From the NCBI GenBank assembly GCA_964357615.1, contig CAYHMC010000001.1, positions 2,602-66,601 on the forward strand: DNA of 64,000 nucleotides, in the 5' to 3' direction. Positions 22,524 through 36,660 of this stretch are shown piece after piece. The DNA is from an uncultured Candidatus Saccharibacteria bacterium. Lineage in GTDB: Bacteria; Patescibacteriota; Minisyncoccia; UBA6257; JACOXY01. How positions within the stretch are numbered: position 1 is the stretch's first letter; each line of letters opens with the position of its first letter. Position numbers and translations under genes: made by a program. The notes under the pieces are model-generated. The model searched no databases. It saw only the letters and a program-made list of their open reading frames with translations, and was not told where the DNA came from.

Positions 22524-22691
22524 TTTATAAAGATTTAACTTTGTTGACTAATTAAATAAAAATTCATATGCTATTGTAGTTAATAAAGGCACTTCTAAGT
22601 AGTATATTTTGTAGCCTAAAAAGCCTATACACTGACCTTAAAATTTGCGATTGTAAAAAGCCGAGATTGACTCGGTATTTCTTATGAAATT

Positions 22692-23234
22692 ATGTTAAAA
22701 CTTTTCACCAAAATACTAAAAACTCCTAGAAATACGATATCTATAGATGAAATTAATAATGAGCATGCGGAAGTGTTGGCAGTCGGTCAGAAAATACATG
22801 AAAAAGTAAAGCGTTTATTTAGAGGCTCTCTTGCTATTAGGCAAGTAGATGCGGGATCAGACAATGCTTGTGAGCAGGAATTAGTAGCACTTTCCAATGC
22901 TTTTTACGATATAGAGCGTTTTGGAATACATTTTGTAGCGTCACCCAAACACGCGGACATGTTAATGGTGACTGGCCCAGTAACTAGAAATATGGCTGAA
23001 GCTCTAAAGAGAGCATACGATGCAACACCAGATCCAAAGATTATCGTAGCTCTAGGAGACGATGCGATAGATGGGGGAATTTTTAAATCATCTTATGCGG
23101 TTCTAGATGGCGTTAAAGAAGTAATCCCAGTAGACTACAGTATTCCTGGTGACCCACCCACACCAAAGGTAATTCTCAATCATCTTTTGAAAATATTAGA
23201 AGTTATTGATGAGAAGTCATTAAAGTCAAAGTAA
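22692..23234 (+). CDS. NuoB/HycG-like small-subunit homolog of group-4 [NiFe] hydrogenase / complex I. It is degenerate, with 3 of 4 FeS-cluster Cys ligands replaced.
   Basis: The backbone ...FGIHFVASPKHADMLMVTGPVTRNM...DPKIIVALG..IPVDYSIPG.PP aligns with NuoB/HycG. At the ligand positions it reads DAGSDNACEQE, GDDAIDGG and PGDPP, where canonical sequences have C(G)xC..C, GxC..GG and GCPP. Confidence 0.75.
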   Translation: MLKLFTKILKTPRNTISIDEINNEHAEVLAVGQKIHEKVKRLFRGSLAIRQVDAGSDNACEQELVALSNAFYDIERFGIHFVASPKHADMLMVTGPVTRNMAEALKRAYDATPDPKIIVALGDDAIDGGIFKSSYAVLDGVKEVIPVDYSIPGDPPTPKVILNHLLKILEVIDEKSLKSK

Positions 23235-23235
23235 C

Positions 23236-25281
23236 ATGCTAGAAATATTTGCTTCATCACTTAGTTTTTTCGTTCTCCTATTCTTATTTTCCATTGGCGC
23301 AATTGGCTCTTTGGTTTTACGAAAAAATGATTGGATGGCAAATGGCTGGAGTAGTTTATTTGCAATTTCAGGTTCTATTTGGGGATTACTTTTATCAATT
23401 TCAATTTTTATAATGGGATCAGGAAAATCAATCTCACTTGGAAGATTTTCTTACCCGCTTCTAAATATTTCGTTTAATATAGATTTACTCTCAGTATTTT
23501 TTATATTTCTAATTTCCTTAATTACACTTTTCTGTTCAATATATGGAATTGGATATGTAAGACATTATTATAAAAAATATAACCTTGGTGTTCTAGGATT
23601 TTTTTACAACCTATTTATATTAGGCATGTACTTGGTTGTGACTGCGAGTAACGGATTACTTTTTTTAATTGCGTGGGAAGTTATGGCTCTAGCATCATAT
23701 TTTCTAGTAATTTATGACAGCAATGACCAAGAAAATATTAAAGCAGGATTCCTATATTTAGTAATGACTCATATTGGAACTGTCTTTATTACTATTTCAT
23801 TTTTGATGCTTTATAAATTTACTGGTTCATTTGATTTTGAAGCAATTAAAATTGGTTTGCCGTTTGTTCCACTTTACGCTAAAAATATTGTTTTTATTTT
23901 AGCTGTGCTTGGATTTGGAATGAAAGCCGGAATAATACCTTTGCATGTTTGGTTGCCCAAAGCTCATCCTGCCGCACCCTCCCATGTTTCTGGGCTGATG
24001 TCAGGCGTAATGATAAAAACTGGCATTTATATGATGATTAGAATGTTTATGGATATCCTCCAGCCAATTCCAGAATGGTGGGGATTTACATTAATGATAA
24101 TTGGTTCCGTTACAGCATTACTCGGAGTTCTTTATGCATTGGCTGAAAATGATATCAAAAGACTTCTAGCTTACTCCAGCATTGAAAATGTAGGTATTAT
24201 TTTGCTTGGATTGGGTAGCTCGCTTTCGTTTTATTCATTGGGCATGCATTCACTCGCGCTTCTTGGTTTAGTTGCGGCGCTATTCCACACTTTAAATCAC
24301 GCTATATTTAAGTCTCTTTTATTTTTGGGAGCAGGCTCTGTTATTTCGGAAACACATACTAGAAATATGGAAAACTATGGTGGACTTATAAAATACATGC
24401 CACAAACCGCATTATTTTTCTTAGTAGGTTCAATGGCTATATCATCTTTACCACCTCTTAATGGATTTTTTAGTGAGTGGATGACATTCCAAGCCATTTT
24501 TCAAGGAATAGCAACTCTGGGTATTTCTACAAGATGGGTATTTATTATTGCCGGAAGCTCACTTGCATTTACGGGTGGCTTAGCGCTTGCGTGTTTTGTA
24601 AAGGCATTTGGAACTATATTTTTAGCTCGACCAAGAAGTAGTGAAGTTAATCACGCCAGAGAATCTTCTATTTATTTGAAGATGAGCATGGGTTCGCTTG
24701 CGATTTTATCGCTACTTTTCGGATTGCTCTCTGGATTTGTATCGGCGTCAATTGAAAAAGTTGGTCGTGGCCTAAGTATTTTCAATGAAGTATCTTCTTT
24801 TGTATCAGTTTCACCATTTGGAAATATATCTGCCGGAAATTTGCCTTCGATCTCGGGTCCGTTAATGTTTGGTTCTCTAGTTGTAATAATATTAGGTGTT
24901 TTATTTGCAACAAAATATTTTGTTTATGGAGAGCAAAAAATAAAAATTGGAAACACTTGGGATTGCGGAATTGATTTAACTCCAAGAATGGAAATTACCT
25001 CAGCGGGATTTGCACACTCAATCATTACAATATTTAAAGGGGTGCTAAAACCAAGCTTACAACATGATGTTGAGTATCATGATGCAGATATCAGATATTT
25101 ACCAGAAACGAGAACTGTTACATTGAGTGTGAGAGATGTTTATCATCAATATTTATACAGACCACTAAATATTTTGGTAGAAGTATTATCAAAGAAAGCC
25201 AAAAAAATTCAAAGCGGAAATATTAATGCTTATATTCTTTATATTTTCATTGCATTATTAGTGGCATTGTATTTTGTATAA
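23236..25281 (+). CDS. NuoL/MrpA/HyfB-like antiporter-type membrane subunit
   Basis: About 16 TM helices. GIIPLHVWLPKAHPAAPSHVSGLMSGVMIKTGIY is the conserved NuoL/HycC proton-pumping motif region. It starts 2 nt after the upstream gene. Confidence 0.8.
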   Translation: MLEIFASSLSFFVLLFLFSIGAIGSLVLRKNDWMANGWSSLFAISGSIWGLLLSISIFIMGSGKSISLGRFSYPLLNISFNIDLLSVFFIFLISLITLFCSIYGIGYVRHYYKKYNLGVLGFFYNLFILGMYLVVTASNGLLFLIAWEVMALASYFLVIYDSNDQENIKAGFLYLVMTHIGTVFITISFLMLYKFTGSFDFEAIKIGLPFVPLYAKNIVFILAVLGFGMKAGIIPLHVWLPKAHPAAPSHVSGLMSGVMIKTGIYMMIRMFMDILQPIPEWWGFTLMIIGSVTALLGVLYALAENDIKRLLAYSSIENVGIILLGLGSSLSFYSLGMHSLALLGLVAALFHTLNHAIFKSLLFLGAGSVISETHTRNMENYGGLIKYMPQTALFFLVGSMAISSLPPLNGFFSEWMTFQAIFQGIATLGISTRWVFIIAGSSLAFTGGLALACFVKAFGTIFLARPRSSEVNHARESSIYLKMSMGSLAILSLLFGLLSGFVSASIEKVGRGLSIFNEVSSFVSVSPFGNISAGNLPSISGPLMFGSLVVIILGVLFATKYFVYGEQKIKIGNTWDCGIDLTPRMEITSAGFAHSIITIFKGVLKPSLQHDVEYHDADIRYLPETRTVTLSVRDVYHQYLYRPLNILVEVLSKKAKKIQSGNINAYILYIFIALLVALYFV

Positions 25282-25287
25282 CAAATT

Positions 25288-26220
25288 ATGATTATTTCTA
25301 CTACATTAATTCAATTAATTGTTACACCAGCGCTTTCCCCATTGGGTATTGGACTGATTAGAAAGATAAAAGCCAAGCTTCAGAATAGACAAGGAGCAAG
25401 TATCACACAACCGTATAGAGATTTATGGAAGCTTTTTCATAAAGACGAAGTGATAAGCAAAGATGCATCTTGGATTTTTAAATACGCGCCATATTTTGTT
25501 TTTGCGACCACAATTGTAGTTGGTTCTTGTATTCCATATATAGATTCCTTAGGACGAAGTATTTTAGCTCCAGACATGTTGGTTATTATTTATACTTTAG
25601 CAACAGGCACATTTTTTTTAGCATTGGCTGGAATGGATACCGGCGGTGGTTTCGGTGGTTTTGGATCTAGTCGTGAAATGACTATATCAGCCCTAGCTGA
25701 AGGGGGACTCATATTTTCATTTTTAACTTTATCAATAATTAGCCACACTACAAATTTACTCGAAATGGCAAATGGAATAAATTTAGCGTACGGAAATTTT
25801 TCCTTACCAATATTATTGGCTTTTTCAGGATATTTTATTGTGTTGCTTGCAGAAACATCAAGATTTCCATTCGATAATCCAGCGACTCATTTGGAACTTA
25901 CAATGATTCACGAAGCTATGATACTAGAATATTCTGGTAAAAAATTAGCCCTAATGGAATGGTCTGCCGCTAATAAGCTTTTTATTTTTGCTGTATTGGG
26001 TTCTAATTTATTTTTTCCTTGGTGGATAGCTTCTGGTGCAAGTATTTATTCTATTATTCAAGAGGTTATTGTTTTATTTATCAAACTATTACTCATCTAT
26101 ACCTCGATTGCATTATTAGAATCAAGCATCGCAAAATTTAGATTTTTTAGATTGCCAGATTTATTAATTATTTCATACATTCTTAATATTATTGCGATAG
26201 GATTAATAAATTACATATGA
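25288..26220 (+). CDS. NuoH/HycD-like membrane subunit
   Basis: 310 aa with 8 TM helices. Size and N-terminal region (TQPYRDLWKLFHK) match HycD/NuoH. Confidence 0.65.
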   Translation: MIISTTLIQLIVTPALSPLGIGLIRKIKAKLQNRQGASITQPYRDLWKLFHKDEVISKDASWIFKYAPYFVFATTIVVGSCIPYIDSLGRSILAPDMLVIIYTLATGTFFLALAGMDTGGGFGGFGSSREMTISALAEGGLIFSFLTLSIISHTTNLLEMANGINLAYGNFSLPILLAFSGYFIVLLAETSRFPFDNPATHLELTMIHEAMILEYSGKKLALMEWSAANKLFIFAVLGSNLFFPWWIASGASIYSIIQEVIVLFIKLLLIYTSIALLESSIAKFRFFRLPDLLIISYILNIIAIGLINYI

Positions 26221-26864
26221 TGATAATTTCTGAACAACTTTTGTTAACTCTATTTTTTGCAACAATTGTTTATTTTCATGTTGCGAAAAAAAATTATGGC
26301 GTTGCGATAACATATGGTATCCAGTCTTTTATTGTTGTCTTGTTGTTATTAAATTCATTCATGGAAACAAATTCAGTATCTCTACTTTTGATTGCATTTA
26401 TAGTTTTGATAGTAAAAGTGATTTTAACTCCTCTATTTATTATACAGCTGATTAAAAAACATGAATTAAAATTTTTAGTTAGTAGTTATACAAATACACC
26501 AATAACTCTTATCGTGGTTGCGATGCTTACCGCAGTTGCACATCTAAATATTTTTAAATCCCTGGTTAATATTGTTCCAGGCAACCAATCATTATTATTA
26601 CTAGCGCTATCGTCATTACTCATATCTTTATTTTTAATTGTAAACCGTAAGGGCGCATCTTCGCAGATTATTGGGATACTTTCGCTCGAAAACAGTATTG
26701 TGGTTTTTGCATTTTTTGCAGGCTTAGAGCAAGCAACCGCGCTTCAGATAGGCATTATATTTGATCTTTCTGTTTGGATAATAACGGCAACCGTTTTTAT
26801 GTCTATGATATATAGACATTTTGGTTCGCTCGATGTTACAGAAATGAAAAATTTAAAAGATTAA
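26217..26864 (+). CDS. HyfE-like small membrane subunit of hydrogenase-4-type complexes
   Basis: 215 aa with ~6-7 TM helices, the same size as E. coli HyfE. It sits between the NuoH-like and NuoN-like genes and overlaps the upstream gene by 4 nt. Confidence 0.5.
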   Translation: MMIISEQLLLTLFFATIVYFHVAKKNYGVAITYGIQSFIVVLLLLNSFMETNSVSLLLIAFIVLIVKVILTPLFIIQLIKKHELKFLVSSYTNTPITLIVVAMLTAVAHLNIFKSLVNIVPGNQSLLLLALSSLLISLFLIVNRKGASSQIIGILSLENSIVVFAFFAGLEQATALQIGIIFDLSVWIITATVFMSMIYRHFGSLDVTEMKNLKD

Positions 26865-26868
26865 AAAT

Positions 26869-28311
26869 ATGGAACTTACAATTATTTTAATATCAACATT
26901 AGCAACTGCTATCATTTGCTTAGCGTCAAGACAAAGATTAATTATTGAATTCGCGTCTGTTATTTCTGCTTTTGTCACATTATTTGAATCTACACTTGTT
27001 GCGTTAAAAGTTTCTTCATTCGGGACATACACTCCTTATAAATTTATAACAATTGATTCATTGGGGGCAATCGTTATGCTTATCATTTCTCTTGTTGGGT
27101 CTGCAGCGGTGATGTATTCGGTTGCCTATCTTAGAGAAGAAACAAAAAAACAAATTATTGGATTCACTCGGGTAAAACAGTATTTCGTATTGCTAAATCT
27201 TTTTTTAGCCGCAATGTTTTTAGCTGTCGCATCAAATAATCCCATTCTTACTTGGATTTCAATTGAAGCCACCACACTTTCAACAGCTTTCTTAATTAGT
27301 TTTTATAATAAACCAACATCACTAGAAGCAGCGTGGAAGTATTTGGTAATTAATTCTGTTGGCTTACTTTTGGGATTTTTTGGAACTTTACTTTATTTTA
27401 CTTCCTTTAAGTTGGTTGGCGAAGCGAATACAATTTCGTGGAATACCTTACTTTTGAATGCTGGTTATCTTGATCCAATGATTGCAAAAATAGCATTTGT
27501 TTTTGTACTTATAGGTTATGGTACAAAAATTGGTTTTGCTCCTATGCACACATGGCTTCCAGACGCTCACAGCAAGGCGCCTGCGCCAATTAGCGCGTTA
27601 CTCTCTGGAGTGTTGCTTAATGTTGCCTTTATTGCAGTTTTGCGGTTTAAATTAGTTACTGATGCGGCTGTTGGAATTGATTTTTCTAGAAACTTATTAA
27701 TTATTTTTGGTCTGCTTTCAATATTTGTAGCTTCGCTTATAATTTTCACGCAAAAGAATTACAAACGTATGCTGGCTTACTCAAGCATAGAGAATATGGG
27801 AATTATCGCGCTTGGTTTTGGTTTCGGAGGATTGGGAAGTGTCGCTGCTTTGCTTCATATGATCTATCATTCTTTACTTAAGTCTTCATTGTTTTTTTCT
27901 GCAGGAAACATATTTCTTAAATATAGTTCAACAAAAATTGATAAAATTAAGGGAACAATGAAAGCTTTACCAATCACTGCGGTACTATTTCTTATGGGAT
28001 TTTTCGCGATAACTGGTACGCCACCATTTGGTGTTTTTCTCACTAAAATATATATTTTATCAGCAGGCATGAGTGCACATCCAATAGTAACCGTTATTTC
28101 TTTTGTGCTTATGTCTTTGGTATTTGTAGGATTTTTTCAGAAAGCTGCAGCGATGACATTTGGTGAAAAACCACAAGGTATTGATTCTGGAGAAAATAAT
28201 GTTTGGCTTATTATTCCTTCGATGGCATTTATAACAATTGTAGTTTGTTTAAGTTTTTATATCCCACCATTTTTAATCAATTTATTAAACAGCACAGCTT
28301 CACATTACTAA
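26869..28311 (+). CDS. NuoN/NuoM/HyfF-like antiporter-type membrane subunit
   Basis: GFAPMHTWLPDAHSKAPAPISALLSGVLLNVAFIAVLRF; about 14 TM helices. Confidence 0.8.
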   Translation: MELTIILISTLATAIICLASRQRLIIEFASVISAFVTLFESTLVALKVSSFGTYTPYKFITIDSLGAIVMLIISLVGSAAVMYSVAYLREETKKQIIGFTRVKQYFVLLNLFLAAMFLAVASNNPILTWISIEATTLSTAFLISFYNKPTSLEAAWKYLVINSVGLLLGFFGTLLYFTSFKLVGEANTISWNTLLLNAGYLDPMIAKIAFVFVLIGYGTKIGFAPMHTWLPDAHSKAPAPISALLSGVLLNVAFIAVLRFKLVTDAAVGIDFSRNLLIIFGLLSIFVASLIIFTQKNYKRMLAYSSIENMGIIALGFGFGGLGSVAALLHMIYHSLLKSSLFFSAGNIFLKYSSTKIDKIKGTMKALPITAVLFLMGFFAITGTPPFGVFLTKIYILSAGMSAHPIVTVISFVLMSLVFVGFFQKAAAMTFGEKPQGIDSGENNVWLIIPSMAFITIVVCLSFYIPPFLINLLNSTASHY

Positions 28312-28312
28312 T

Positions 28313-29884
28313 ATGCAAAAGGAAAAAATTCAAAAATATATACCAGTAAATTCGAAAGCAGAATTTCTTAAAAATTCAGTACAATTTGAGGTTGAGTCAT
28401 TGGAAATATTAAAAATAGTGTCAAACTTGAAACACGAGCATAACTTAAGTTTAAAGCTAGTCACTGCTACGGATGAACAAAAAGAGCTAGGATGTTTTAG
28501 GATTTGGTACATTTTTGGAGTGCCCGATGAAGATGCTTTTGTTATTCCATATATTACGGTTAAGGATGCAAATGAATTTCCATCTATTACATCAATTTGC
28601 GGTGAGGCTATGGGGTATGAAATGAAGATTAGAACATTTTTTGGACTAAAACCAATTGGACACCCAGATTTTAGACAGACCATCCTGCATGAAAATTGGC
28701 CTGAAAATATACATCCACTTAGAAATGACTTCAAATGGGATAAGAGGCCAGAATTAGCACATGGGACATATAAGTTCCAAAAAGTTAATGGTGAGGGTAT
28801 TTATGAAATTCCAGTTGGACCAATACATGCTGGCATTATTGAACCTGGACACTTTAGATTTAGCGTTGCTGGTGAGAGGATTATGCTTTTAGAACCACGC
28901 CTAGGTTTTGTCCATAAAGGAAGTGAAAAGCTTTTTGAAATTCTTCCGATAGATCAAAAAATAAAGTTATCGGAAAAAATTTCTGGCGATAGCTCATTTA
29001 GTCATTCATTGGCATTTTGTGAGGCATTGGAGCAATTGAGTGACACTATAGTATCAAGTCGAGCAAAATATTTGAGAGTTATATTTGCAGAACTAGAAAG
29101 ACTCGCAAATCATTTTGGAGATATTGGTGCAATTATGATAGATACTGGTTTTAATTTTGGCGGAAGTAATGGGTCACGATTGCGCGAGATAATAATGCAG
29201 ATTAATGAGCGTCTTACTGGTAGCAGGTTCTTGCGTGGCGTAAATAAAATTGGCGGTGTTTCAAAAGATTTAAATAATGAAGAAAAGTCTCTTTTATCCT
29301 CTGATTTGGATAGAATACTAAAAGATTTTGGTGAAGTTATAAATGTTGCAGAAAATAGCGTGTCATTATTAAACAGATTAAAGGGGACTGGAGTCATAGC
29401 AAAAGAAGTTGCACAATTGAATGGCGTGATGGGGGTTGCGGGACGTGCTACTGGAATTGTTAGTGATGCAAGAATTGATTATAAATATGCAGCATATGGT
29501 GAAATTACTCCATTTGATATTGCGGTTGAGAATGACGGGGATGTATTTGCAAGATTTAATGTGCGCATTAAAGAAGTTCGCACATCGCATAAAATTATAA
29601 AAAATGCGTTGAAGAATTTACCTGAAGGCTCTATTAGAAGCGATGAGATGAATTCTGAATTTAAAGCGAATTCTCTCGCGATTAGTATTGTTGAGGGTTG
29701 GCGAGGAGAAATTGTTTACTTCGTAACAACCGATTCACATGGGAATATAAGTAGAGTCGTGCCTCGTGATCCGTCACAAATGAATTGGTCTGTACTTAAA
29801 GATGCTGGTTTTGATAATGTTGTACCAGATTTTCCATTAATAAATAAAAGCTTTAACTTATCATACTCTGGAAACGATTTATAA
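28313..29884 (+). CDS. Fused NuoC-NuoD / HycE-like large-subunit homolog of group-4 [NiFe] hydrogenase. All four Ni-Fe-binding Cys are absent.
   Basis: The N-terminal ~150 aa are NuoC-like (YEMKIRTFFGLKPIGHPDFRQTIL). Next comes VGPIHAGIIEPGHFRFSVAGE, which is HycE-like rather than NuoD-like. At the L1 position it reads KISGDSSFSHS where canonical sequences have RxCGxCxxxH. The C-terminus reads DFPLINKSFNLSYSGNDL where canonical sequences have DAPLIxxSLDPCxSCTDR. Confidence 0.8.
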   Translation: MQKEKIQKYIPVNSKAEFLKNSVQFEVESLEILKIVSNLKHEHNLSLKLVTATDEQKELGCFRIWYIFGVPDEDAFVIPYITVKDANEFPSITSICGEAMGYEMKIRTFFGLKPIGHPDFRQTILHENWPENIHPLRNDFKWDKRPELAHGTYKFQKVNGEGIYEIPVGPIHAGIIEPGHFRFSVAGERIMLLEPRLGFVHKGSEKLFEILPIDQKIKLSEKISGDSSFSHSLAFCEALEQLSDTIVSSRAKYLRVIFAELERLANHFGDIGAIMIDTGFNFGGSNGSRLREIIMQINERLTGSRFLRGVNKIGGVSKDLNNEEKSLLSSDLDRILKDFGEVINVAENSVSLLNRLKGTGVIAKEVAQLNGVMGVAGRATGIVSDARIDYKYAAYGEITPFDIAVENDGDVFARFNVRIKEVRTSHKIIKNALKNLPEGSIRSDEMNSEFKANSLAISIVEGWRGEIVYFVTTDSHGNISRVVPRDPSQMNWSVLKDAGFDNVVPDFPLINKSFNLSYSGNDL

Positions 29885-29948: not shown

Positions 29949-30287
29949 TCAGTCTTTTTCTACGAAACTAATACCATCGAAATCAACAAATACTGGAATA
30001 ACTGGAATTTTGCTTAAGGATACCGGGCCAAATTTCTCAACGACCTGCTTAGCGATGACTAAATCATTTAGTATTTTTTCTTTCGGTGTATTGCCGTATG
30101 CGCCACAAGTTTCATGAGCCATAAGAACTATTCTCGGAGGATGATGTAGTTCAATGGTTCGCTTGATTTGCTTGAGGACATAAATTCTATCGCTTTCATG
30201 TTCAGGGCTTGCTAAGTCTTTTGCGCCACCAGCAATCGTAATTCGATCAACTTTATCAATTTCAAGAATGGTTTTAAGTTCGGTCAT
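29949..30287 (-). CDS. Hypothetical conserved small protein immediately downstream of atpC
   Basis: 112 aa; contains the motif LMAHETCGAYG (HxxCG). No family could be assigned by eye. Confidence 0.4.
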   Translation of the reverse strand: MTELKTILEIDKVDRITIAGGAKDLASPEHESDRIYVLKQIKRTIELHHPPRIVLMAHETCGAYGNTPKEKILNDLVIAKQVVEKFGPVSLSKIPVIPVFVDFDGISFVEKD

Positions 30288-30370: not shown

Positions 30371-32033
<1,663 letters not shown>

Positions 32034-32094
32034 TTATTTCAATAAACGACTTTGTATTGTTTTTCATCATATATTTATAAAATGCGATCGCGGC

Positions 32095-32119
32095 TTCGTA
32101 CGGGATCATCCCGTACGAA
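32095..32119. promoter_or_regulatory. Perfect 12-1-12 palindrome (TTCGTACGGGAT-c-ATCCCGTACGAA) inside the atpG-atpD intergenic gap; a candidate operator or RNA hairpin
   Basis: It is flanked by related copies: tcatcccgaacgaa at 31986-31999 and tacgggatca at ~32218-32230. It is also flanked by the palindromes agatcgcgatct (32002-32013) and gcgatcgc (32083-32090). Confidence 0.5.
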
Positions 32120-32225
32120 ATAGGACGCGAACATTTTTTATTATCTACATTGTTTACTAATTATTATTAAGCTTTTATTAATCATTGTCATTATCATATA
32201 TGCGTGTCCGCTATTTCATACGGGA

Positions 32226-33155
32226 TCATGTGTTTGAATTTACTCCGGCAGATATTTCAGATAACTCTTGAGTAATAGCTGCTTGACGAGATTTATTAAA
32301 AATAAGTTGTAAATTATCTTTTAAGTCTGCGGCATTGTCTGACGCGCTCTTCATTGCTACCATTCTTGCTGAATGTTCTGAAGCATTAGATTCGAGTATT
32401 AAGTGATATATTACCATTTCTACTAGGTGTTTGGTTAAATCATTTAAAAGTTTCTGCGCTTCTTCTTTTGATGATGGCTCTGTAATATATTCAAAATGGT
32501 CGCTTAAAATTGATTTTGAATCATTGGCTTCTGAAAAACGACCATATTCTGGCACAAGTTCTTTAATATCTTCTTCAATTTTTTCAAAACTAATGGGAAG
32601 TAATTCACGAATCAAGACATCTTGACGAAGAGTTGTTTTAAAATGTGTGCTAATGGTTATAACTTTTGACCATTTACCACTCAAGAAACCATCAATAACA
32701 AAGTCAGCAAAATCTTGTGTGTGTTGTGGTGTGGCATAATCTCCAAACTTAGTAAACGATTTTTCTGTTCTTAAATTTTTGCGAACCAAATAATCTTCAG
32801 ATTTTTTACCTACTGCCGCATAAAGATATTTGTCAGAATCATCGGTAAAACTTTTCTCAAATTTTCTAAGTACGTTGCTGTTTAGTGATCCCGCGAGCCC
32901 TTTGTCTGCTGAAATAAGAATCACTAATGTTTTTCCGGACTCGCCTGACTCTACCATAAGAGCTGATTTGTGAGGAGAACGTTTTGAAATTTCACGCAAA
33001 ATTTCCATACCTGCAATTGCATATGGTCTGGAATTTAGCGCTAAAACCTGCGCTTTGCGCATTTTGTTGCTCGCAACCATTTCCATCGCCTTAGTAATTT
33101 GCTCGGTATTCCCAACTGATTTTATTCTTCTTTTAATTGATTGAGTAGATTCCAT
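32226..33155 (-). CDS. atpG: F-type ATP synthase gamma subunit
   Basis: 309 aa; the N-terminal IKRRIKSVGNTEQITKAMEMVA and C-terminal ...ITQELSEI match gamma. Confidence 0.88.
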   Translation of the reverse strand: MESTQSIKRRIKSVGNTEQITKAMEMVASNKMRKAQVLALNSRPYAIAGMEILREISKRSPHKSALMVESGESGKTLVILISADKGLAGSLNSNVLRKFEKSFTDDSDKYLYAAVGKKSEDYLVRKNLRTEKSFTKFGDYATPQHTQDFADFVIDGFLSGKWSKVITISTHFKTTLRQDVLIRELLPISFEKIEEDIKELVPEYGRFSEANDSKSILSDHFEYITEPSSKEEAQKLLNDLTKHLVEMVIYHLILESNASEHSARMVAMKSASDNAADLKDNLQLIFNKSRQAAITQELSEISAGVNSNT

Positions 33156-34678
33156 TATAGTGTGTTCTTAAAATTTTGAATTGCCAATTTTAATTTCTCT
33201 TCAATTTCTGTTGTCAGTTCTTTGGTGGTTCTTATGGGTTCTAATAAGTCGACGTCATGTCGCCCTCGCATATATTCCAAATATTTATTTTCAATATTTT
33301 TAAGATTTTGTACTGCCACATCATCAAAATAACCATTAATTGTTGCATAAAACACTAGCACCTGACTTTCAAATGGAAGAGGAGATGCATCATTCTGTTT
33401 CAATATTTCAGTTATCATTTGACCTCGTTTAATTTTATTTTTTGTCCCTTCGTCTAGATCTGATGCAAATTGAACAAATGCTTGTAATTCTCTAAACTGT
33501 GCCAATTCAAGACGAAGTTTACCAGAAACTTTTTTCATAGCTTTTGTTTGAGCTGAAGATCCTACGCGAGAAACAGAAAGTCCTGCGTTAATTGCTGGTC
33601 TAATACCCTGATAGAAAAGATCTGCCTCTAAATAAATTTGACCATCTGTAATAGAAATAACGTTGGTTGGAACATAGGCAGATACATCGCTTAGTTGAGT
33701 CTCTATTATTGGAAGCGCTGTTAAGGAGCCACCCCCTTTTTCTTTGCTTAATTTTGCAGAGCGTTCAAGAAGCCTAGAGTGGAGATAAAAAATATCTCCA
33801 GGATAAGCTTCTCTACCAGGAGTGCGTCGCAAGAGTAAAGAAATTTGTCTGTATGCAGTGGCGTGCTTTGAAAGGTCGTCATAGATAATCAATGAATCTT
33901 GACCTTGATCCATAAAATATTCTCCAATTGCACACCCCGCATATGGCGCTAAATACCAAAAAGATGCAGGGGAAGAAGCACCTGCCACAACTACAATTGT
34001 GTATTTCATGGCACCGGCCGCTTCAAGCTCTGATATTATTTTTGCAACATTTGATTCTTTTTGACCAATTGCAACATAAATACAAATCGGAATTTTCTGT
34101 CCTTTCTCATTTTGCTGATTAACAATCGTATCAATAGCTATTGCTGTTTTGCCAGTTTGGCGGTCGCCAATAATTAGCTCGCGTTGGCCTCGTCCTATTG
34201 GAATCATAGAATCTATTGCTTTAATTCCAGTATGAATTGGTGATTTTACTGACTCACGTTCAAGAACTGAAGGGGCCCGCTTTTCAATTGGGTAATTGGC
34301 TGGCTTAGCGCCTTTCCATATATCTCCTTTGCCATCAATAGGCTCTCCAAGGGGGTTAATAACCCTTCCAATGAGTTCTGGTCCCACTTTAATACTTAAC
34401 ACCTCTCCAGTGCTCTTTACCTCATCTCCGGCTTTAATTTTCTTAAAATCACCAAGAACAATTGCTCCAATTGATGATTCTTCTAAATTTAACGCCACAG
34501 CTTTAATGGACCCATCCTTGGTTTCGATGCTTAACATTTCTTGGCTCATTGCATTACTTAACCCCTGAATTTTAACTACGCCATCGGCAACCTCGATAAT
34601 ATTACCTATTTTAGAAATTAAAACATCACTCTTTGCGTTTTCAATTTCCCTTTTGAGTTTTTCAATTATTTCAAACAT
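33155..34678 (-). CDS. atpA: F-type ATP synthase alpha subunit
   Basis: [15 protein letters not shown] (P-loop) and ...[14 protein letters not shown]; 507 aa. Confidence 0.93.
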
Positions 34679-35040
34679 TTTAGTCTGTTCTGCAATGAGC
34701 TATCGATAGACAGCTCATCGTTAATTGTTATTTTTATACCAGCAATAAGTTTCTTGTTTATTTTAAAAGTCACATCACTATTTTTATTAAAAGAATTTTT
34801 AACTTTATCTATGAGTGGCTTACTTAATTCTCGAGCCGTTTCAATTTTAATTATTGAAATATTTTCCTTTGAGGCGATATTTTTTTTTATTTCATTGAAT
34901 ATTTTATTTGAATCTTTAATTGCCCCATGCTTTTTTAAGACAGAAGTAAAATTATTACACAGTTCATTATATTGGCTTTCTGGTGTTTTGAGTAACACTT
35001 CGCAAAATGCTTTAGCGAAAATTGTTGGTGAATATTGCAT
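34666..35040 (-). CDS. atpH: F-type ATP synthase delta (OSCP) subunit, short form
   Basis: It lies between atpF and atpA. The N-terminal [11 protein letters not shown] resembles the delta N-terminal YAKALFE motif. At 124 aa it is shorter than the usual ~180 aa. Confidence 0.6.
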
Positions 35041-35549
35041 TAGGATATATTGTTTTTACGCAAATTAGTGACGGTTTGCTCAATTAGTTTTTCATCTATG
35101 GCGCTAGGGGATAGCAGAACGGTTTTCTCTATTGCTAATTTAACAAATTCTAAAGCTTCACTGTAAAATTTAGCTTTTTCTTTTAATATTTCTTCGTTGC
35201 CTCTTGCCACAGCTCCCAAAAGCAATTCATCGCCTTTTTTGCGAGCAACTTCCAATAATTCGACTTCTTGTGCTTTTGTTTTTATTTGCATTGCTCCCAG
35301 TATATTAAGCGATTCTTTTTCAGCTTCGGACAGCTTTTCCGCCTTTATTCTCTCTGACGCTTCAAGTTCTTTTTTAGCAAGTTCCGCATCTTCTATACCT
35401 TTTTGTATTTTATTTCTCCTTAATTCAAGAATGCTAAGTAGTGGTTTGTAAACTGTAAATCGTAATATTATTAGTACAATCAAAAAATTAATTGCTTGAA
35501 CAGCAAGTAATTTGAAGTTAACACCCAATTGTGAAAATAATTCAGACAT
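35040..35549 (-). CDS. atpF: F-type ATP synthase subunit b
   Basis: A single N-terminal TM helix followed by a long charged coiled coil (KAEKLSEAEKES...); assigned partly by position. Confidence 0.75.
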   Translation of the reverse strand: MSELFSQLGVNFKLLAVQAINFLIVLIILRFTVYKPLLSILELRRNKIQKGIEDAELAKKELEASERIKAEKLSEAEKESLNILGAMQIKTKAQEVELLEVARKKGDELLLGAVARGNEEILKEKAKFYSEALEFVKLAIEKTVLLSPSAIDEKLIEQTVTNLRKNNIS

Positions 35550-35564
35550 ACCTTAACTTACTTA

Positions 35565-35792
35565 TTATACGAATTTTAATATAAGCGCTACGACTAATGC
35601 GTAAATAGCGATTGCTTCAGCAAAAGCGATAGCTAATATCATTGCTGTTTGAACTTTTGGTGCTGCTTCTGGGTTTCTTCCAATTGCTTCTGCTCCTCTT
35701 GAACCAATAAGTCCAATCGCTATAGCTGGGCCAATAGTACCAAGTGCCATTATAATTCCAATCGCTAACATTTTCATTGTTTCTGCGTCCAT
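35565..35792 (-). CDS. atpE: F-type ATP synthase subunit c
   Basis: 75 aa hairpin protein with IGRNPE in the loop and [12 protein letters not shown] carrying the conserved carboxylate. No Na+-type Q/ES/T residues are present, so it is probably H+-coupled. Confidence 0.9.
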
Positions 35793-35861
35793 CCCGTTAG
35801 AGGTCCCGTTTCGTAGGCTGTTCTGATAGTTTTATTATCGAGTACATACCTCTAATGGGAT
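35791..35861. promoter_or_regulatory. Imperfect inverted repeat (atcccgttagaggt ... acctctaatgggat) in the atpB-atpE intergenic region
   Basis: The arms match at 13 of 14 positions and are separated by ~43 nt. It shares the ATCCCGT k-mer with the atpG-atpD palindrome. Confidence 0.35.
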
Positions 35862-35916
35862 CCATTTTATTTTTAATAATTTTAATTAATATTAATGTTT
35901 CGACCAAGTTTTAATT

Positions 35917-36660
35917 TCAGTGACTTTCTTCAATCGTTGCGATTGTTATAAATACCAGCGTTAGCATTGCAAATACGAATGCCTGAATAAATCCAACGAA
36001 TATCTCAAGCAGTATAAATGGTAGCGGTGCTATAAGCGGCAGAAGGAAAACAATAATAATTAGTAATACTTCTCCAGCAAATACATTACCAAACAACCTA
36101 AATGAGAACGAGATTATTTTAGCAATTTCTGAGATTAATTCAAGTATTCCAATAAAAAACCCAATCGGACTTTTAAAATTTATAAATTTTTTAAAATGAG
36201 AAATCGCACCAATTGCACTAATTCCAAAAATATTAACTCCAATCACTGCGATAAGAGCAATGGCAATAGTAAAGTTTAAGTCCGCTGCTGGAGCTCGGAA
36301 TAGTGGAATTAGTTGGGTTTCTTCTCCGTGAGTCTCGTAGAGGCCAATAGATCCAATTCCAGGGAGTAGTCCAAGCCAGTTTGAAATAAGAACAAAAAAG
36401 AAAATTGTTGCGACCAGCGGGAAGTATTTTTTAGTTTTTTCTTCATCATTTATGACGGAGTTACATAGCGAAAGCATTCCCTCAAAAGCAAACTCTAAGA
36501 AATTTTGAAATTTACCTGGAATTAAAGTAAGTCTATTTTTAAAAAATATTCCTAAAACAATAAGAATAGCTGAAGTTATAAATGCTAAAGCTACTGAATT
36601 TGTTATATCCAAGCCCCAAAAATAGAATAAATGCTCTGCTTTGATTGAAATTTCTGGCAT
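35917..36660 (-). CDS. atpB: F-type ATP synthase subunit a
   Basis: 247 aa with 5-6 TM helices. The C-terminal region ...RLFGNVFAGEVLL contains the conserved R in the penultimate helix. Confidence 0.88.
   Translation of the reverse strand: MPEISIKAEHLFYFWGLDITNSVALAFITSAILIVLGIFFKNRLTLIPGKFQNFLEFAFEGMLSLCNSVINDEEKTKKYFPLVATIFFFVLISNWLGLLPGIGSIGLYETHGEETQLIPLFRAPAADLNFTIAIALIAVIGVNIFGISAIGAISHFKKFINFKSPIGFFIGILELISEIAKIISFSFRLFGNVFAGEVLLIIIVFLLPLIAPLPFILLEIFVGFIQAFVFAMLTLVFITIATIEESH

Follow-up and report, generated by a model that had tools for sequence, protein, structure and literature searches.

A groundwater bacterium of the Candidate Phyla Radiation (CPR) carries, on the plus strand at positions 22692-29884 of the 64-kb stretch of DNA that we analysed (the window), an intact six-gene operon that belongs, judging by sequence, to the Ehr family and within it to a clade specific to CPR/Patescibacteria. 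The encoded complex is predicted to have neither a Ni-Fe site, nor a proximal [4Fe-4S] cluster, nor a NuoI/HycF-type or other Fe-S subunit, and no redox cofactor appears bindable at any of its ancestral ligand sites. We see about an even chance that this six-subunit complex of complex-I/Hyf type moves ions independently of redox chemistry and that its conserved peripheral module has a non-redox role.

The ORFs start and end exactly where the original prediction had placed them, and the six genes were confirmed by the ORF list together with Pfam and NCBIfam assignments, which give the order NuoB/HycG-, HyfB-, NuoH/HycD-, HyfE-, HyfF- and fused NuoC-NuoD/HycE-like. The genes, all on the plus strand, encode the small subunit B (NuoB/HycG/MbhJ-like, 180 aa, 22692..23234; PF01058 (NuoB / Oxidored_q6), 2.2e-26), antiporter-like subunit 1 or L (HyfB/HycC/NuoL/MrpA-like, 681 aa, 23236..25281; PF00361, 5.9e-62), subunit H, the linker between peripheral and membrane arms (NuoH/HycD/MbhM-like, 310 aa, 25288..26220; PF00146, 1.3e-42), the HyfE-like small membrane subunit E (215 aa, 26217..26864; NF008556, 4.5e-16, below cut-off), antiporter-like subunit 2 or F (HyfF/NuoN/MrpD-like, 480 aa, 26869..28311; PF00361, 7.1e-53) and the fused NuoC plus large subunit CD (HycE/NuoD-like, 523 aa, 28313..29884; PF00329 and PF00346). 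Overlaps of 2-4 nt had been noted between these genes; H and E do overlap by 4 nt, but the remaining junctions are gaps of 1 (B/L), 6 (L/H), 4 (E/F) and 1 nt (F/CD).

The large subunit descends from Hyf/Hyc-type hydrogenases, as had been proposed. Its best solved relative is HycE of Escherichia coli (7z0s_E), to which it aligns up to residue 522 with E=1.4e-63, while the match to Nqo4 is weaker (1e-40). In this gap-free alignment CGIC of HycE corresponds to S224-G-D-S227 and DPCYSC to N-L-S517-Y-S-G520, which bears out, residue by residue, the predicted loss of all four Ni-Fe cysteines (now S224, S227, S517 and G520). The protein stops directly after NLSYSGNDL and has no C-terminal extension for protease processing. 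None of the 120 nearest large subunits carries a cysteine at any of the Ni-Fe positions. The pocket that replaces the metal site (EKISGDSSFSH / NLSYSGNDL) has motifs (SGD…SYSGxDL) that do not vary within the CPR clade and are conserved in Ehr from outside CPR, the invariant polar or acidic set being E177, S224-G-D226, H231 and S517-Y-S-G520-x-D522.

Of the four cysteines that ligate the proximal [4Fe-4S] cluster in relatives, the small subunit keeps C60 alone and has Asp at the other three positions (D57, D124 and D154), since GSCNGC aligns with GS-D57-NA-C60, GAC with GD-D124 and PGCPP with PG-D154-PP. These positions were mapped by pairwise and profile-based alignment to MbhJ (6cfw_J) and HycG (7z0s_G), without gaps near the motifs, and the earlier claim of a three-in-four ligand loss stands. 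The 120 nearest cluster representatives of the small subunit never show more than one cysteine at the four ligand positions. Even without its cluster the subunit is predicted to retain the NuoB/MbhJ fold: its AF2 model (pLDDT 90.8) superposes on MbhJ (6cfw_J) at 2.0 A and matches NuoB/PSST chains of complex I / NDH-1 with a probability of 1.0.

Searching all ORFs of at least 40 codons in the window for CxxCxxCxxxC, RxCGxC, DPCxxC and GCPP returned no match, and Pfam scans of the 10 flanking ORFs detected no hyp gene or redox partner; within the 64 kb, the statement that a ferredoxin-type subunit and hyp genes are missing therefore holds. Together with the lost Ni-Fe ligands and three of four Fe-S ligands, the lack of a partner in the window supports the view that hydrogenase or electron-transfer chemistry is impossible for this complex. 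A caveat is that our view of the genome is limited to 64 kb, beyond which a partner could be encoded. The complex could then still be a redox enzyme that receives electrons from such a partner (a formate dehydrogenase or a ferredoxin) and works with an unusual cofactor or set of ligands, for instance a metal held by Asp residues; Asp does occasionally ligate Fe-S clusters. A partnership of formate dehydrogenase and Ehr has been hypothesised for Margulisbacteria (PMC6349859), and Ehr subunits of Geobacter increase on formate (PMC7894505). We nevertheless regard this as improbable, given that the CPR clade keeps at most one Cys at the cluster site (none in 8 of 25 non-redundant loci), that the replacements vary by lineage (D/T/S, C/A/E/V, D/G/A/E, D/N/A/S) and thus outline no common metal site, that the 64-kb window holds no Fe-S motif and that no oxidoreductase is found among the conserved neighbours. 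In addition, I176 and G225 align with H38 and Y87, the quinone ligands (His and Tyr) of Nqo4.

Gene content and gene order are identical across the loci compared, 15 from genomes and 39 from metagenomes. Identity to the window's proteins in the genome loci amounts to 61-78% for B, 54-69% for CD, 51-66% for L, 55-71% for H, 39-63% for E and 44-67% for F; the small subunit is thus the best conserved of the six, and conservation within the complex is highest in the peripheral arm, which speaks against this arm being a mere vestige. Close homologues (61-72% identity) occur in MAGs of Peregrini-, Gracili-, Paceibacteria, Magasanik-, Staskawicz- and Saccharibacteria. Apart from the lost ligands, the machine is under strong purifying selection, and the preserved gene set, order and identity indicate that it is not a decaying relic. 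That it should be a non-functional remnant of a Hyf-type hydrogenase that a reduced genome is in the course of losing is very improbable: every catalytic ligand is gone, CPR genomes are in reduction and the distribution of the operon is patchy, but its ORFs are intact and tightly packed, the peripheral subunits keep 54-78% amino-acid identity over deeply divergent CPR classes, the replacement motifs are invariant, gene order is kept in >40 loci, no frameshifts or stop codons were seen in close relatives, and 7.2 kb of dead DNA would not persist in ~1-Mb genomes.

The family reportedly owes its name to Coppi (in 2005) and Marreiros and colleagues (in 2013). Jaffe et al. (2020; PMC7304191) have already described Ehr large subunits without metal-binding cysteines that form a monophyletic clade in CPR and are patchily distributed there, and one 2023 paper still terms the function of Ehr unknown. 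Our operon lies within this clade, with a large subunit of group-4 hydrogenase descent devoid of Ni-Fe cysteines and a multi-subunit composition that includes NuoH-like and antiporter-like subunits; nothing sets it apart, and the suggestion that it goes beyond Ehr and is undescribed is not supported. The missing NuoI/HycF-type ferredoxin subunit, which had been considered special, is absent from all six-gene Ehr clusters that we examined, those retrieved from other phyla included, and thus does not distinguish the operon either. What can be added are family-level observations, none of which we found in the accessible literature: the loss of Fe-S ligands from the small subunit, which is clade-wide in CPR Ehr and not peculiar to this operon, its recurrence in other Ehr, some of which keep the cluster, and the fact that several CPR lineages have the operon linked to genes of the F-ATP synthase. 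Small-subunit ligands are also lost in Ehr of Chloroflexota (L016) and other lineages (L020, L021), and the sister six-gene clusters L017 and L022 keep all four Cys. The SGD/SYSGxDL pocket is common to both kinds, which makes the [4Fe-4S] cluster look dispensable for the core function of Ehr. The substituted ligand sets are heterogeneous (DCDD, TADD, SEDD, NEGD, DAAD, SAES, DVDD and others) and, in a neighbour-joining tree, Cys-losing small subunits are scattered among Cys-keeping relatives; this suggests repeated, apparently independent losses.

As to the membrane arm, three antiporter-like subunits had been predicted, but PF00361 is found in two only. Subunit L scores 664.8 bits against NF005086 (hydrogenase 4 subunit B; cut-off 667), retains the SSIEN and HxxxHxxFK motifs and, when aligned to HycC and MbhH, keeps Glu and Lys opposite charged membrane-helix residues of MbhH. 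Subunit F matches NF005044 (hydrogenase 4 subunit F, 1.5e-131); one Glu and three Lys agree with conserved charged positions of MbhH, and one more Lys position is occupied by Asn. Subunit H (4.6e-34 to 7z0s_D) has a loop, ETSRFPFD...E.T..HE...EYSG, that aligns with the HycD carboxylates. By alignment, then, the antiporter-like and NuoH-like subunits keep counterparts of the conserved charged residues of pumping relatives. The C-terminal half of the HyfE-like subunit weakly resembles NuoK/MrpC/MbhG (PF00420, 4e-4, below cut-off, and a weak 6cfw_G match).

Among solved complexes, E. coli Hyc/Hyf (7Z0S) offers the best relatives of four subunits (HycE 1.4e-63, HycC 2e-77, HycD 4.6e-34, HycG 1.3e-29), and the operon shares with formate hydrogenlyase / hydrogenase 4 the NuoC-NuoD fusion and membrane subunits of HyfB/HyfE/HyfF type. 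Differently from Hyc/Hyf, it has neither Ni-Fe ligands nor proximal cluster, lacks HycF/HyfH, HycB/HyfA, HyfD, formate dehydrogenase and the C-terminal extension of the large subunit, and is not accompanied by Hyp/HycI genes in the window. Mbh (6CFW) and Mbs (6U8Y) of Pyrococcus furiosus similarly place a peripheral B/CD module on a NuoH-like subunit and add antiporter-like subunit(s), and Mbs keeps working despite its lost Ni-Fe site; however, both are ferredoxin-driven, retain the proximal cluster and a 2x[4Fe-4S] subunit (MbhN/MbsN), and possess an Mrp-type MbhA-G set that is absent here. Complex I has homologues of the NuoB, C, D, H and L/M/N-like subunits, but the operon lacks cluster N2 ligands and NuoA, I, J and E-G, and has I176 and G225 in place of the quinone-site His and Tyr. 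The likeliest functional analogue would be the Mrp Na+(K+)/H+ antiporter (6Z16, 7QRU, 7D3U), which operates without redox chemistry and whose MrpA/MrpD-type subunits are homologous to L and F (E = 1e-33 to 3e-40). Mrp, however, has no NuoH, NuoB or NuoCD homologues and requires MrpB, C, E, F and G, whereas the operon has no MrpB, E, F or G and only the weak NuoK/MrpC-like segment.

A redox-independent translocator of this kind would be a secondary, gradient-driven transporter, Mrp-like in action, that moves H+, perhaps exchanging it for Na+ or K+, and transfers no electrons. The B/CD/H junction would not be a catalytic redox site but would couple or gate transport without redox chemistry, through protonation in the old Ni-Fe pocket or through an ion or small ligand bound there. 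Two observations sit less easily with an Mrp-like action: the top conservation of the peripheral arm is unexpected for a mere antiporter cap, and MrpB/E/F/G, the proposed Na+ path of Mrp, are missing. Conservation of the pocket residues across phyla (S224, G225, D226, H231, S517, Y518, G520, D522 and E177), of the peripheral arm and of the NuoH-like coupling subunit favours a binding or catalytic site over an inert plug. The pocket, with its Ser, Asp, His and Tyr, might thus have been repurposed for a non-redox reaction on a bound substrate that is coupled to ion translocation, and precedents exist in decarboxylase/methyltransferase Na+ pumps and in CO2 hydration by CupA/DabA modules on NuoL-type subunits. 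We rate this as a minor possibility, as there is no substrate to name, genes for enzymes or transporters do not consistently adjoin the operon and no likeness to the sites of known hydrolases or lyases was seen. Note also that a weakly carbonic-anhydrase-like ORF beside the operon is missing at all other loci.

For the redox-independent translocator, a partnership with the F-type ATPase would be most likely, in fermentative bacteria without a respiratory chain: the ATPase may hydrolyse ATP and build a proton gradient that Ehr converts or uses, or the reverse. The c subunit of the window's ATP synthase carries no Na+-binding signature by motif reading, so there is no specific pointer to Na+. 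The patchiness of Ehr across CPR also means that it is no universal route to membrane energisation in these bacteria. The ATP synthase operon atpB-E-F-H-A-G-D-C (30371..36660, minus strand, ORF calls) is convergent with the Ehr operon, as had been noted, and atpC lies ~490 nt away, close to the ~500 nt given before, although the interval contains a 112-aa minus-strand ORF (29949-30287) with a weak PF20393 match. F-ATP synthase is the sole recurrent neighbour of the CPR operon, and is probably a functional partner of the complex and not a subunit. Among the 17 non-redundant CPR loci whose upstream sequence is long enough, 5 have atpA-G-D-C immediately upstream of the gene for the small subunit and on its strand, and two further loci (L034 and L055) show this same arrangement.

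The operon, on the + strand at window positions 22692-29884, consists of six ORFs with a total length of 7.2 kb that encode, in this order, a small subunit of the NuoB/HycG type (B; PF01058), an antiporter-like, HyfB-like subunit (L; PF00361, and 664.8 bits for NF005086, whose cut-off is 667), a NuoH/HycD-like subunit (H; PF00146), a HyfE-like subunit (E; assigned by Pfam/NCBIfam), a second antiporter-like protein resembling HyfF (F; PF00361) and a fused NuoC-NuoD/HycE-like large subunit (CD; PF00329 and PF00346). PF00361 is thus found in two subunits, L and F, and not in three as the original prediction had it; likewise, the overlaps of 2-4 nt described there hold for the H/E junction (4 nt), while the remaining four junctions are gaps of 1, 6, 4 and 1 nt. 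The G+C content of the window is approximately 34%. A promoter scan of the operon region returned promoter-like matches no more commonly than shuffled sequence did, and neither a tRNA gene nor an Rfam family at threshold was detected in the whole 64-kb window.

The closest solved relative of the large subunit is Escherichia coli HycE (7z0s_E; E = 1.4e-63, with the alignment reaching residue 522), well ahead of Thermus thermophilus Nqo4 (1e-40), which supports the hydrogenase ancestry already proposed for this protein. In the alignment to 7z0s_E, the C-G-I-C segment of HycE corresponds to S224-G225-D226-S227 and its D-P-C-Y-S-C segment to N515-L516-S517-Y518-S519-G520, after which the protein continues for only three residues. 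The four cysteines that bind Ni-Fe in group 4 [NiFe]-hydrogenases (motifs L1, RxCGxCxxxH, and L2, DPCxxCxxH/R) are therefore absent, their positions being occupied by S224, S227, S517 and G520. In the small subunit, the positions of the proximal [4Fe-4S] ligands are taken by D57, C60, D124 and D154, so that a single cysteine of the four is present. This was seen in alignments to MbhJ of the Pyrococcus furiosus membrane-bound hydrogenase Mbh (6cfw_J) and to E. coli HycG (7z0s_G), performed both with the single sequence and with a 17-sequence profile; they are gap-free around the motifs, and the profile places the ligand positions exactly where the pairwise comparison does, with no shift. Moreover, the motifs CxxCxxCxxxC, RxCGxC, DPCxxC and GCPP are missing from every ORF of at least 40 codons in the 64-kb window, and Pfam scans of the ten ORFs flanking the operon revealed neither oxidoreductases nor any of the Hyp families, which serve the maturation of group 4 [NiFe]-hydrogenases together with an endopeptidase specific for their C-terminal extension. 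Altogether, these results bear out at the residue level the claim that all Ni-Fe ligands and three of the four Fe-S ligands have been lost, and according to the alignments no ancestral cofactor ligand set is left in the complex. An AlphaFold2 model of the small subunit, computed with homologues (pLDDT 90.8), can be superposed on MbhJ at 2.0 A and on NuoB of Aquifex at 1.6 A; the NuoB/MbhJ-type fold is thus predicted to persist without the cluster.

Database searches returned hundreds of close matches, with 61-72% identity for the large subunit and 70-82% for the small one. The named homologues come nearly all from the Candidate Phyla Radiation (CPR)/Patescibacteria, including Peregrini-, Gracili-, Paceibacteria, Magasanik-, Staskawicz-, Nomura-, Adler- and Saccharibacteria; the few exceptions carry the names Firestonebacteria, Deltaproteobacteria and Chloroflexi, which may reflect mis-binning. 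A metagenome contig from Hainich groundwater (L023) is 100% identical to the window. The same six genes occur in the same order in all 15 related genome loci and in every metagenome locus long enough to judge. Across the genome loci, identity to the window proteins is highest for the small subunit (61-78%), followed by 54-69% for the large subunit and 39-71% for the membrane subunits. S-S-S-G occupies the Ni-Fe positions in 117 of the nearest 120 large subunits, and not one of the 120 carries a cysteine there; the segments EKISGDSSFSH and SFNLSY(S/T)GNDL are nearly invariant. The nearest 120 small subunits show the ligand patterns DCDD (89 sequences), DCDN (23), DADD (3), TADD (3), DAEN (1) and DVDD (1), never with more than one cysteine. 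Such fixed replacement residues, within conserved genes, indicate at the sequence level that the remodelled proteins are under purifying selection and not decaying, and this conservation excludes the reading of the operon as a non-functional relic.

[quoted passage not shown] In a single cluster, the window operon joins NuoB-like, NuoH-like and antiporter-like (Mrp/NuoL-type) subunits to a large subunit that aligns over its full length with HycE and has all four cysteines replaced. Jaffe et al. (2020, PMC7304191) described the CPR sequences as a monophyletic group without metal-binding cysteines inside the Ehr subclade of group 4, and judged an interaction with H2 to be probably impossible. 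By homologue identity and organism names, the window operon very probably belongs to this published clade, and the suggestion that it goes beyond Ehr can therefore not be retained.

How far this remodelling extends was seen when the small subunit was searched against 1.84 billion cluster representatives and the 150 best matches were assessed. All four cysteines are kept in 92 of these, while approximately 23 have lost at least two, with replacements such as SEGD, NEGD, DAAD, DADN, SAES, ECED, DVDD and DCAA, among others; some of the cluster-less forms are labelled Chloroflexota or Dehalococcoidia. Genomic context was fetched for six representatives, one of which (P0125) lies on an uninformative 1.6-kb contig. 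The ligand positions read D-A-A-D in L016 (Chloroflexota, G+C 54%), N-E-G-D in L020 (58%) and C-C-C-C in L017/L018 (62-63%), all with the gene order B-L-H-E-F-CD. They again read C-C-C-C in L022 (66%), with the order L-H-E-F-CD-B, and D-V-D-D in L021 (67%), with the order H-E-F-CD-B-L. Each of these non-CPR loci has the identical six-subunit set and none a NuoI/HycF-type gene. By the motif scan, the 64-kb window itself contains no 2x[4Fe-4S] ferredoxin-like subunit of the HycF/EchF/MbhN/NuoI type, and a seventh conserved gene was found neither among the first 15 related loci nor beside the Ehr genes outside CPR. Hence the missing ferredoxin subunit, which had been regarded as special to the window, is a trait of the Ehr family.

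The large subunits of the non-CPR loci (L016-L022) all lack the Ni-Fe cysteines and share the motifs (K/R)xSG(D/T)… and …S(Y/P)(S/A)GxD(L/R). Nine residues, E177, S224, G225, D226, H231, S517, Y518, G520 and D522 in the numbering of the window protein, are invariant among 19 sequences of these lineages, and the shared motifs make the Ser/Asp pocket a family signature. As the C-C-C-C and the substituted loci demonstrate, some Ehr lineages have kept the small-subunit cluster and others have lost it. In a neighbour-joining tree, whose resolution is low because the protein is short, the cluster-less forms are scattered among cysteine-keeping relatives, which suggests several independent Fe-S losses. 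No description of Fe-S loss in Ehr was found in the literature searched, Marreiros et al. 2013 and Coppi 2005 lying outside that search. What is new is at the family level: complete cofactor-ligand loss throughout the CPR clade, apparently repeated Fe-S loss elsewhere beside cysteine-keeping sisters, a replacement pocket conserved across Ehr, and, in CPR, genomic linkage with the ATP synthase genes.

Two further observations concern individual non-CPR loci. The high-G+C (62-66%) operons L017:7356-14666, L018 and L022:3370-10546 combine the four [4Fe-4S] cysteines with the absence of both Ni-Fe ligands and an encoded ferredoxin-like subunit, and a cluster in these complexes would lack an evident partner from which to take electrons or to which to pass them. 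In L021:1602-8996, the gene order is a circular permutation, the small subunit (277 aa) carries an N-terminal extension, and the motifs of the large subunit deviate further (SGTS and LSPAGCDR). Note also that the Mycobacterium tuberculosis cluster Rv0082-Rv0087 presumably has the same six-gene order as the Ehr operon; searches on this cluster yielded nothing about its ligand residues.

Could the replacement residues of the small subunit form a metal site of their own? The three Asp and one Cys were considered for this role and rejected, as some members of the CPR clade carry A, E or V in place of C60, and in other cluster-less Ehr proteins position 124 is G, A or E and position 154 is N, A or S. 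With replacements varying in this manner between lineages, a shared metal site built by Asp residues is unlikely. The heterogeneous and often cysteine-free ligand positions, together with the lack of a conserved oxidoreductase neighbour, also disfavour a redox partner hidden elsewhere in the genome, a proposal that draws on the fact that only 64 kb of this genome are in view.

The complex also differs from the better known relatives of its parts. Differently from complex I, it does not retain the full set of N2 ligands of NuoB, and T. thermophilus Nqo4 H38 and Y87, which we take to be the quinone-site ligands, align with I176 and G225; NuoA, I, J and K as well as E, F and G are absent from the operon, a weak PF00420 segment inside the HyfE-like subunit being the only trace of NuoK. 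Subunits L and F resemble the MrpA/MrpD types of Mrp antiporters (PF00361; PDB chains at 1e-33 to 3e-40), whereas none of the six proteins matches MnhB, MNHE, MrpF or MnhG in Pfam/NCBIfam, and the MrpC/NuoK-like part remains below threshold. In subunit L, a Glu and a Lys aligned to charged membrane-helix residues of the Mbh antiporter-like subunit MbhH are kept, as are the motifs SSIEN and HxxxHxxFK; in subunit F, one Glu and three Lys align in this way, with Asn at one more MbhH Lys position, and the carboxylates in the ETSRFPFD…EYSG region of the NuoH-like subunit align with those of HycD. We infer that the Ehr membrane arm still translocates ions. As no electron could enter or be transferred, the driving force would have to be non-redox, and the simplest model would be a secondary, gradient-driven cation/proton exchanger similar to Mrp. 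The peripheral arm is the best conserved part, and its old pocket is invariantly polar and acidic; it likely has its own role, for instance in binding protons or ions, in sensing a ligand, in gating or even in catalysis of a non-redox kind. A pump driven by non-redox catalysis fits this conservation of the pocket, with the reservation that its substrate cannot be named.

The sole recurrent functional neighbour of CPR Ehr, when the ORFs flanking the first 15 related loci were clustered, is the F-type ATP synthase. The other neighbours there (ComEC, UvrD, Fic, two-component and MFS proteins) are unrelated, and a conserved seventh subunit or partner beside the operon was thus rejected. Of the 17 non-redundant loci whose upstream sequence is long enough, five (L006, L007, L009, L028 and L042) carry atpA-G-D-C directly upstream on the same strand, and the same arrangement precedes the small-subunit gene in L034 and L055. 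In the five of these seven loci that were measured, atpA-G-D(-C) ends 435-651 nt before that gene. The seven loci, which span three different ligand-pattern sublineages, look like one bioenergetic gene block, and atp genes were not seen upstream of Ehr in the non-CPR loci L016-L022. In the window, the Ehr and ATP synthase operons are convergent neighbours. A coherent scheme would have the ATPase build a proton gradient from fermentative ATP, which Ehr would then use or convert. We consider it possible, albeit improbable, that the old Ni-Fe site binds or converts an ion or a non-redox ligand, and that the complex, together with the F-ATPase, forms part of the membrane-energisation machinery of bacteria without an electron-transport chain; the invariant Ser/Asp/His/Tyr pocket would then adjoin an acidic patch at the former Fe-S site.

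One ion-pumping chassis is common to complex I, membrane-bound hydrogenases and Mrp antiporters, and there is continuing debate on how the pumps are coupled to what happens in the peripheral arm. The CPR Ehr, with the whole chassis and a highly conserved peripheral arm lacking any redox centre, provides an informative comparison case, posing the alternatives of an arm with a non-redox role or of pumps that run as a secondary transporter under regulation by the arm. If a non-redox ligand or ion is indeed used, the repeated, independent Fe-S loss in Ehr from other phyla would mean that the entire family relies on a non-redox coupling principle. The presence of an F-type ATP synthase without a respiratory chain in CPR bacteria is a long-standing puzzle, and here a conserved putative ion-translocating complex is genetically tied to that synthase. 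The operon is also amenable to study, being 7.2 kb long and requiring no metallocentre maturation, and it should express in E. coli. Its value is tempered by the facts that the clade is already published, that Ehr is patchy in CPR and that any function of an Ehr complex is as yet putative.

Na+-binding c rings carry a Gln/Ser/Thr signature. The ATP synthase c subunit of the window (35565-35792, - strand, 75 aa, motif AFAEAIAIY) possesses the carboxylate and the Tyr; by-eye reading of the motif places Ala and Ile at the Ser and Thr positions, and the helix-1 Gln is absent. Lacking this signature, the ATPase is probably H+-coupled, and Na+ bioenergetics as deduced from the ATP synthase was rejected. 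A 112-aa ORF (29949-30287, - strand) separates atpC from the end of the Ehr operon. Its match to PF20393, 'putative carbonic anhydrase', is marginal (32.5 bits, the cut-off being 30); an HxxC motif (HETC) is present and no CxDxR motif was seen. Contig L023, which is identical to the window, also has this ORF, none of the other related loci does, and a functional link to Ehr was rejected on these grounds. Immediately upstream of atpB, a position often occupied by atpI, is a zinc-ribbon protein of 108 aa (PF13240; 36726-37052, - strand), one of only four window ORFs with paired CxxC motifs. Finally, a perfect 6-bp G+C-rich hairpin (GCCGAG…CTCGGT; 22660-22676), located 16 nt upstream of the start codon of the small subunit, resembles a terminator on either strand according to the scan; it could end transcription of the ychF-like gene upstream or influence how translation starts.
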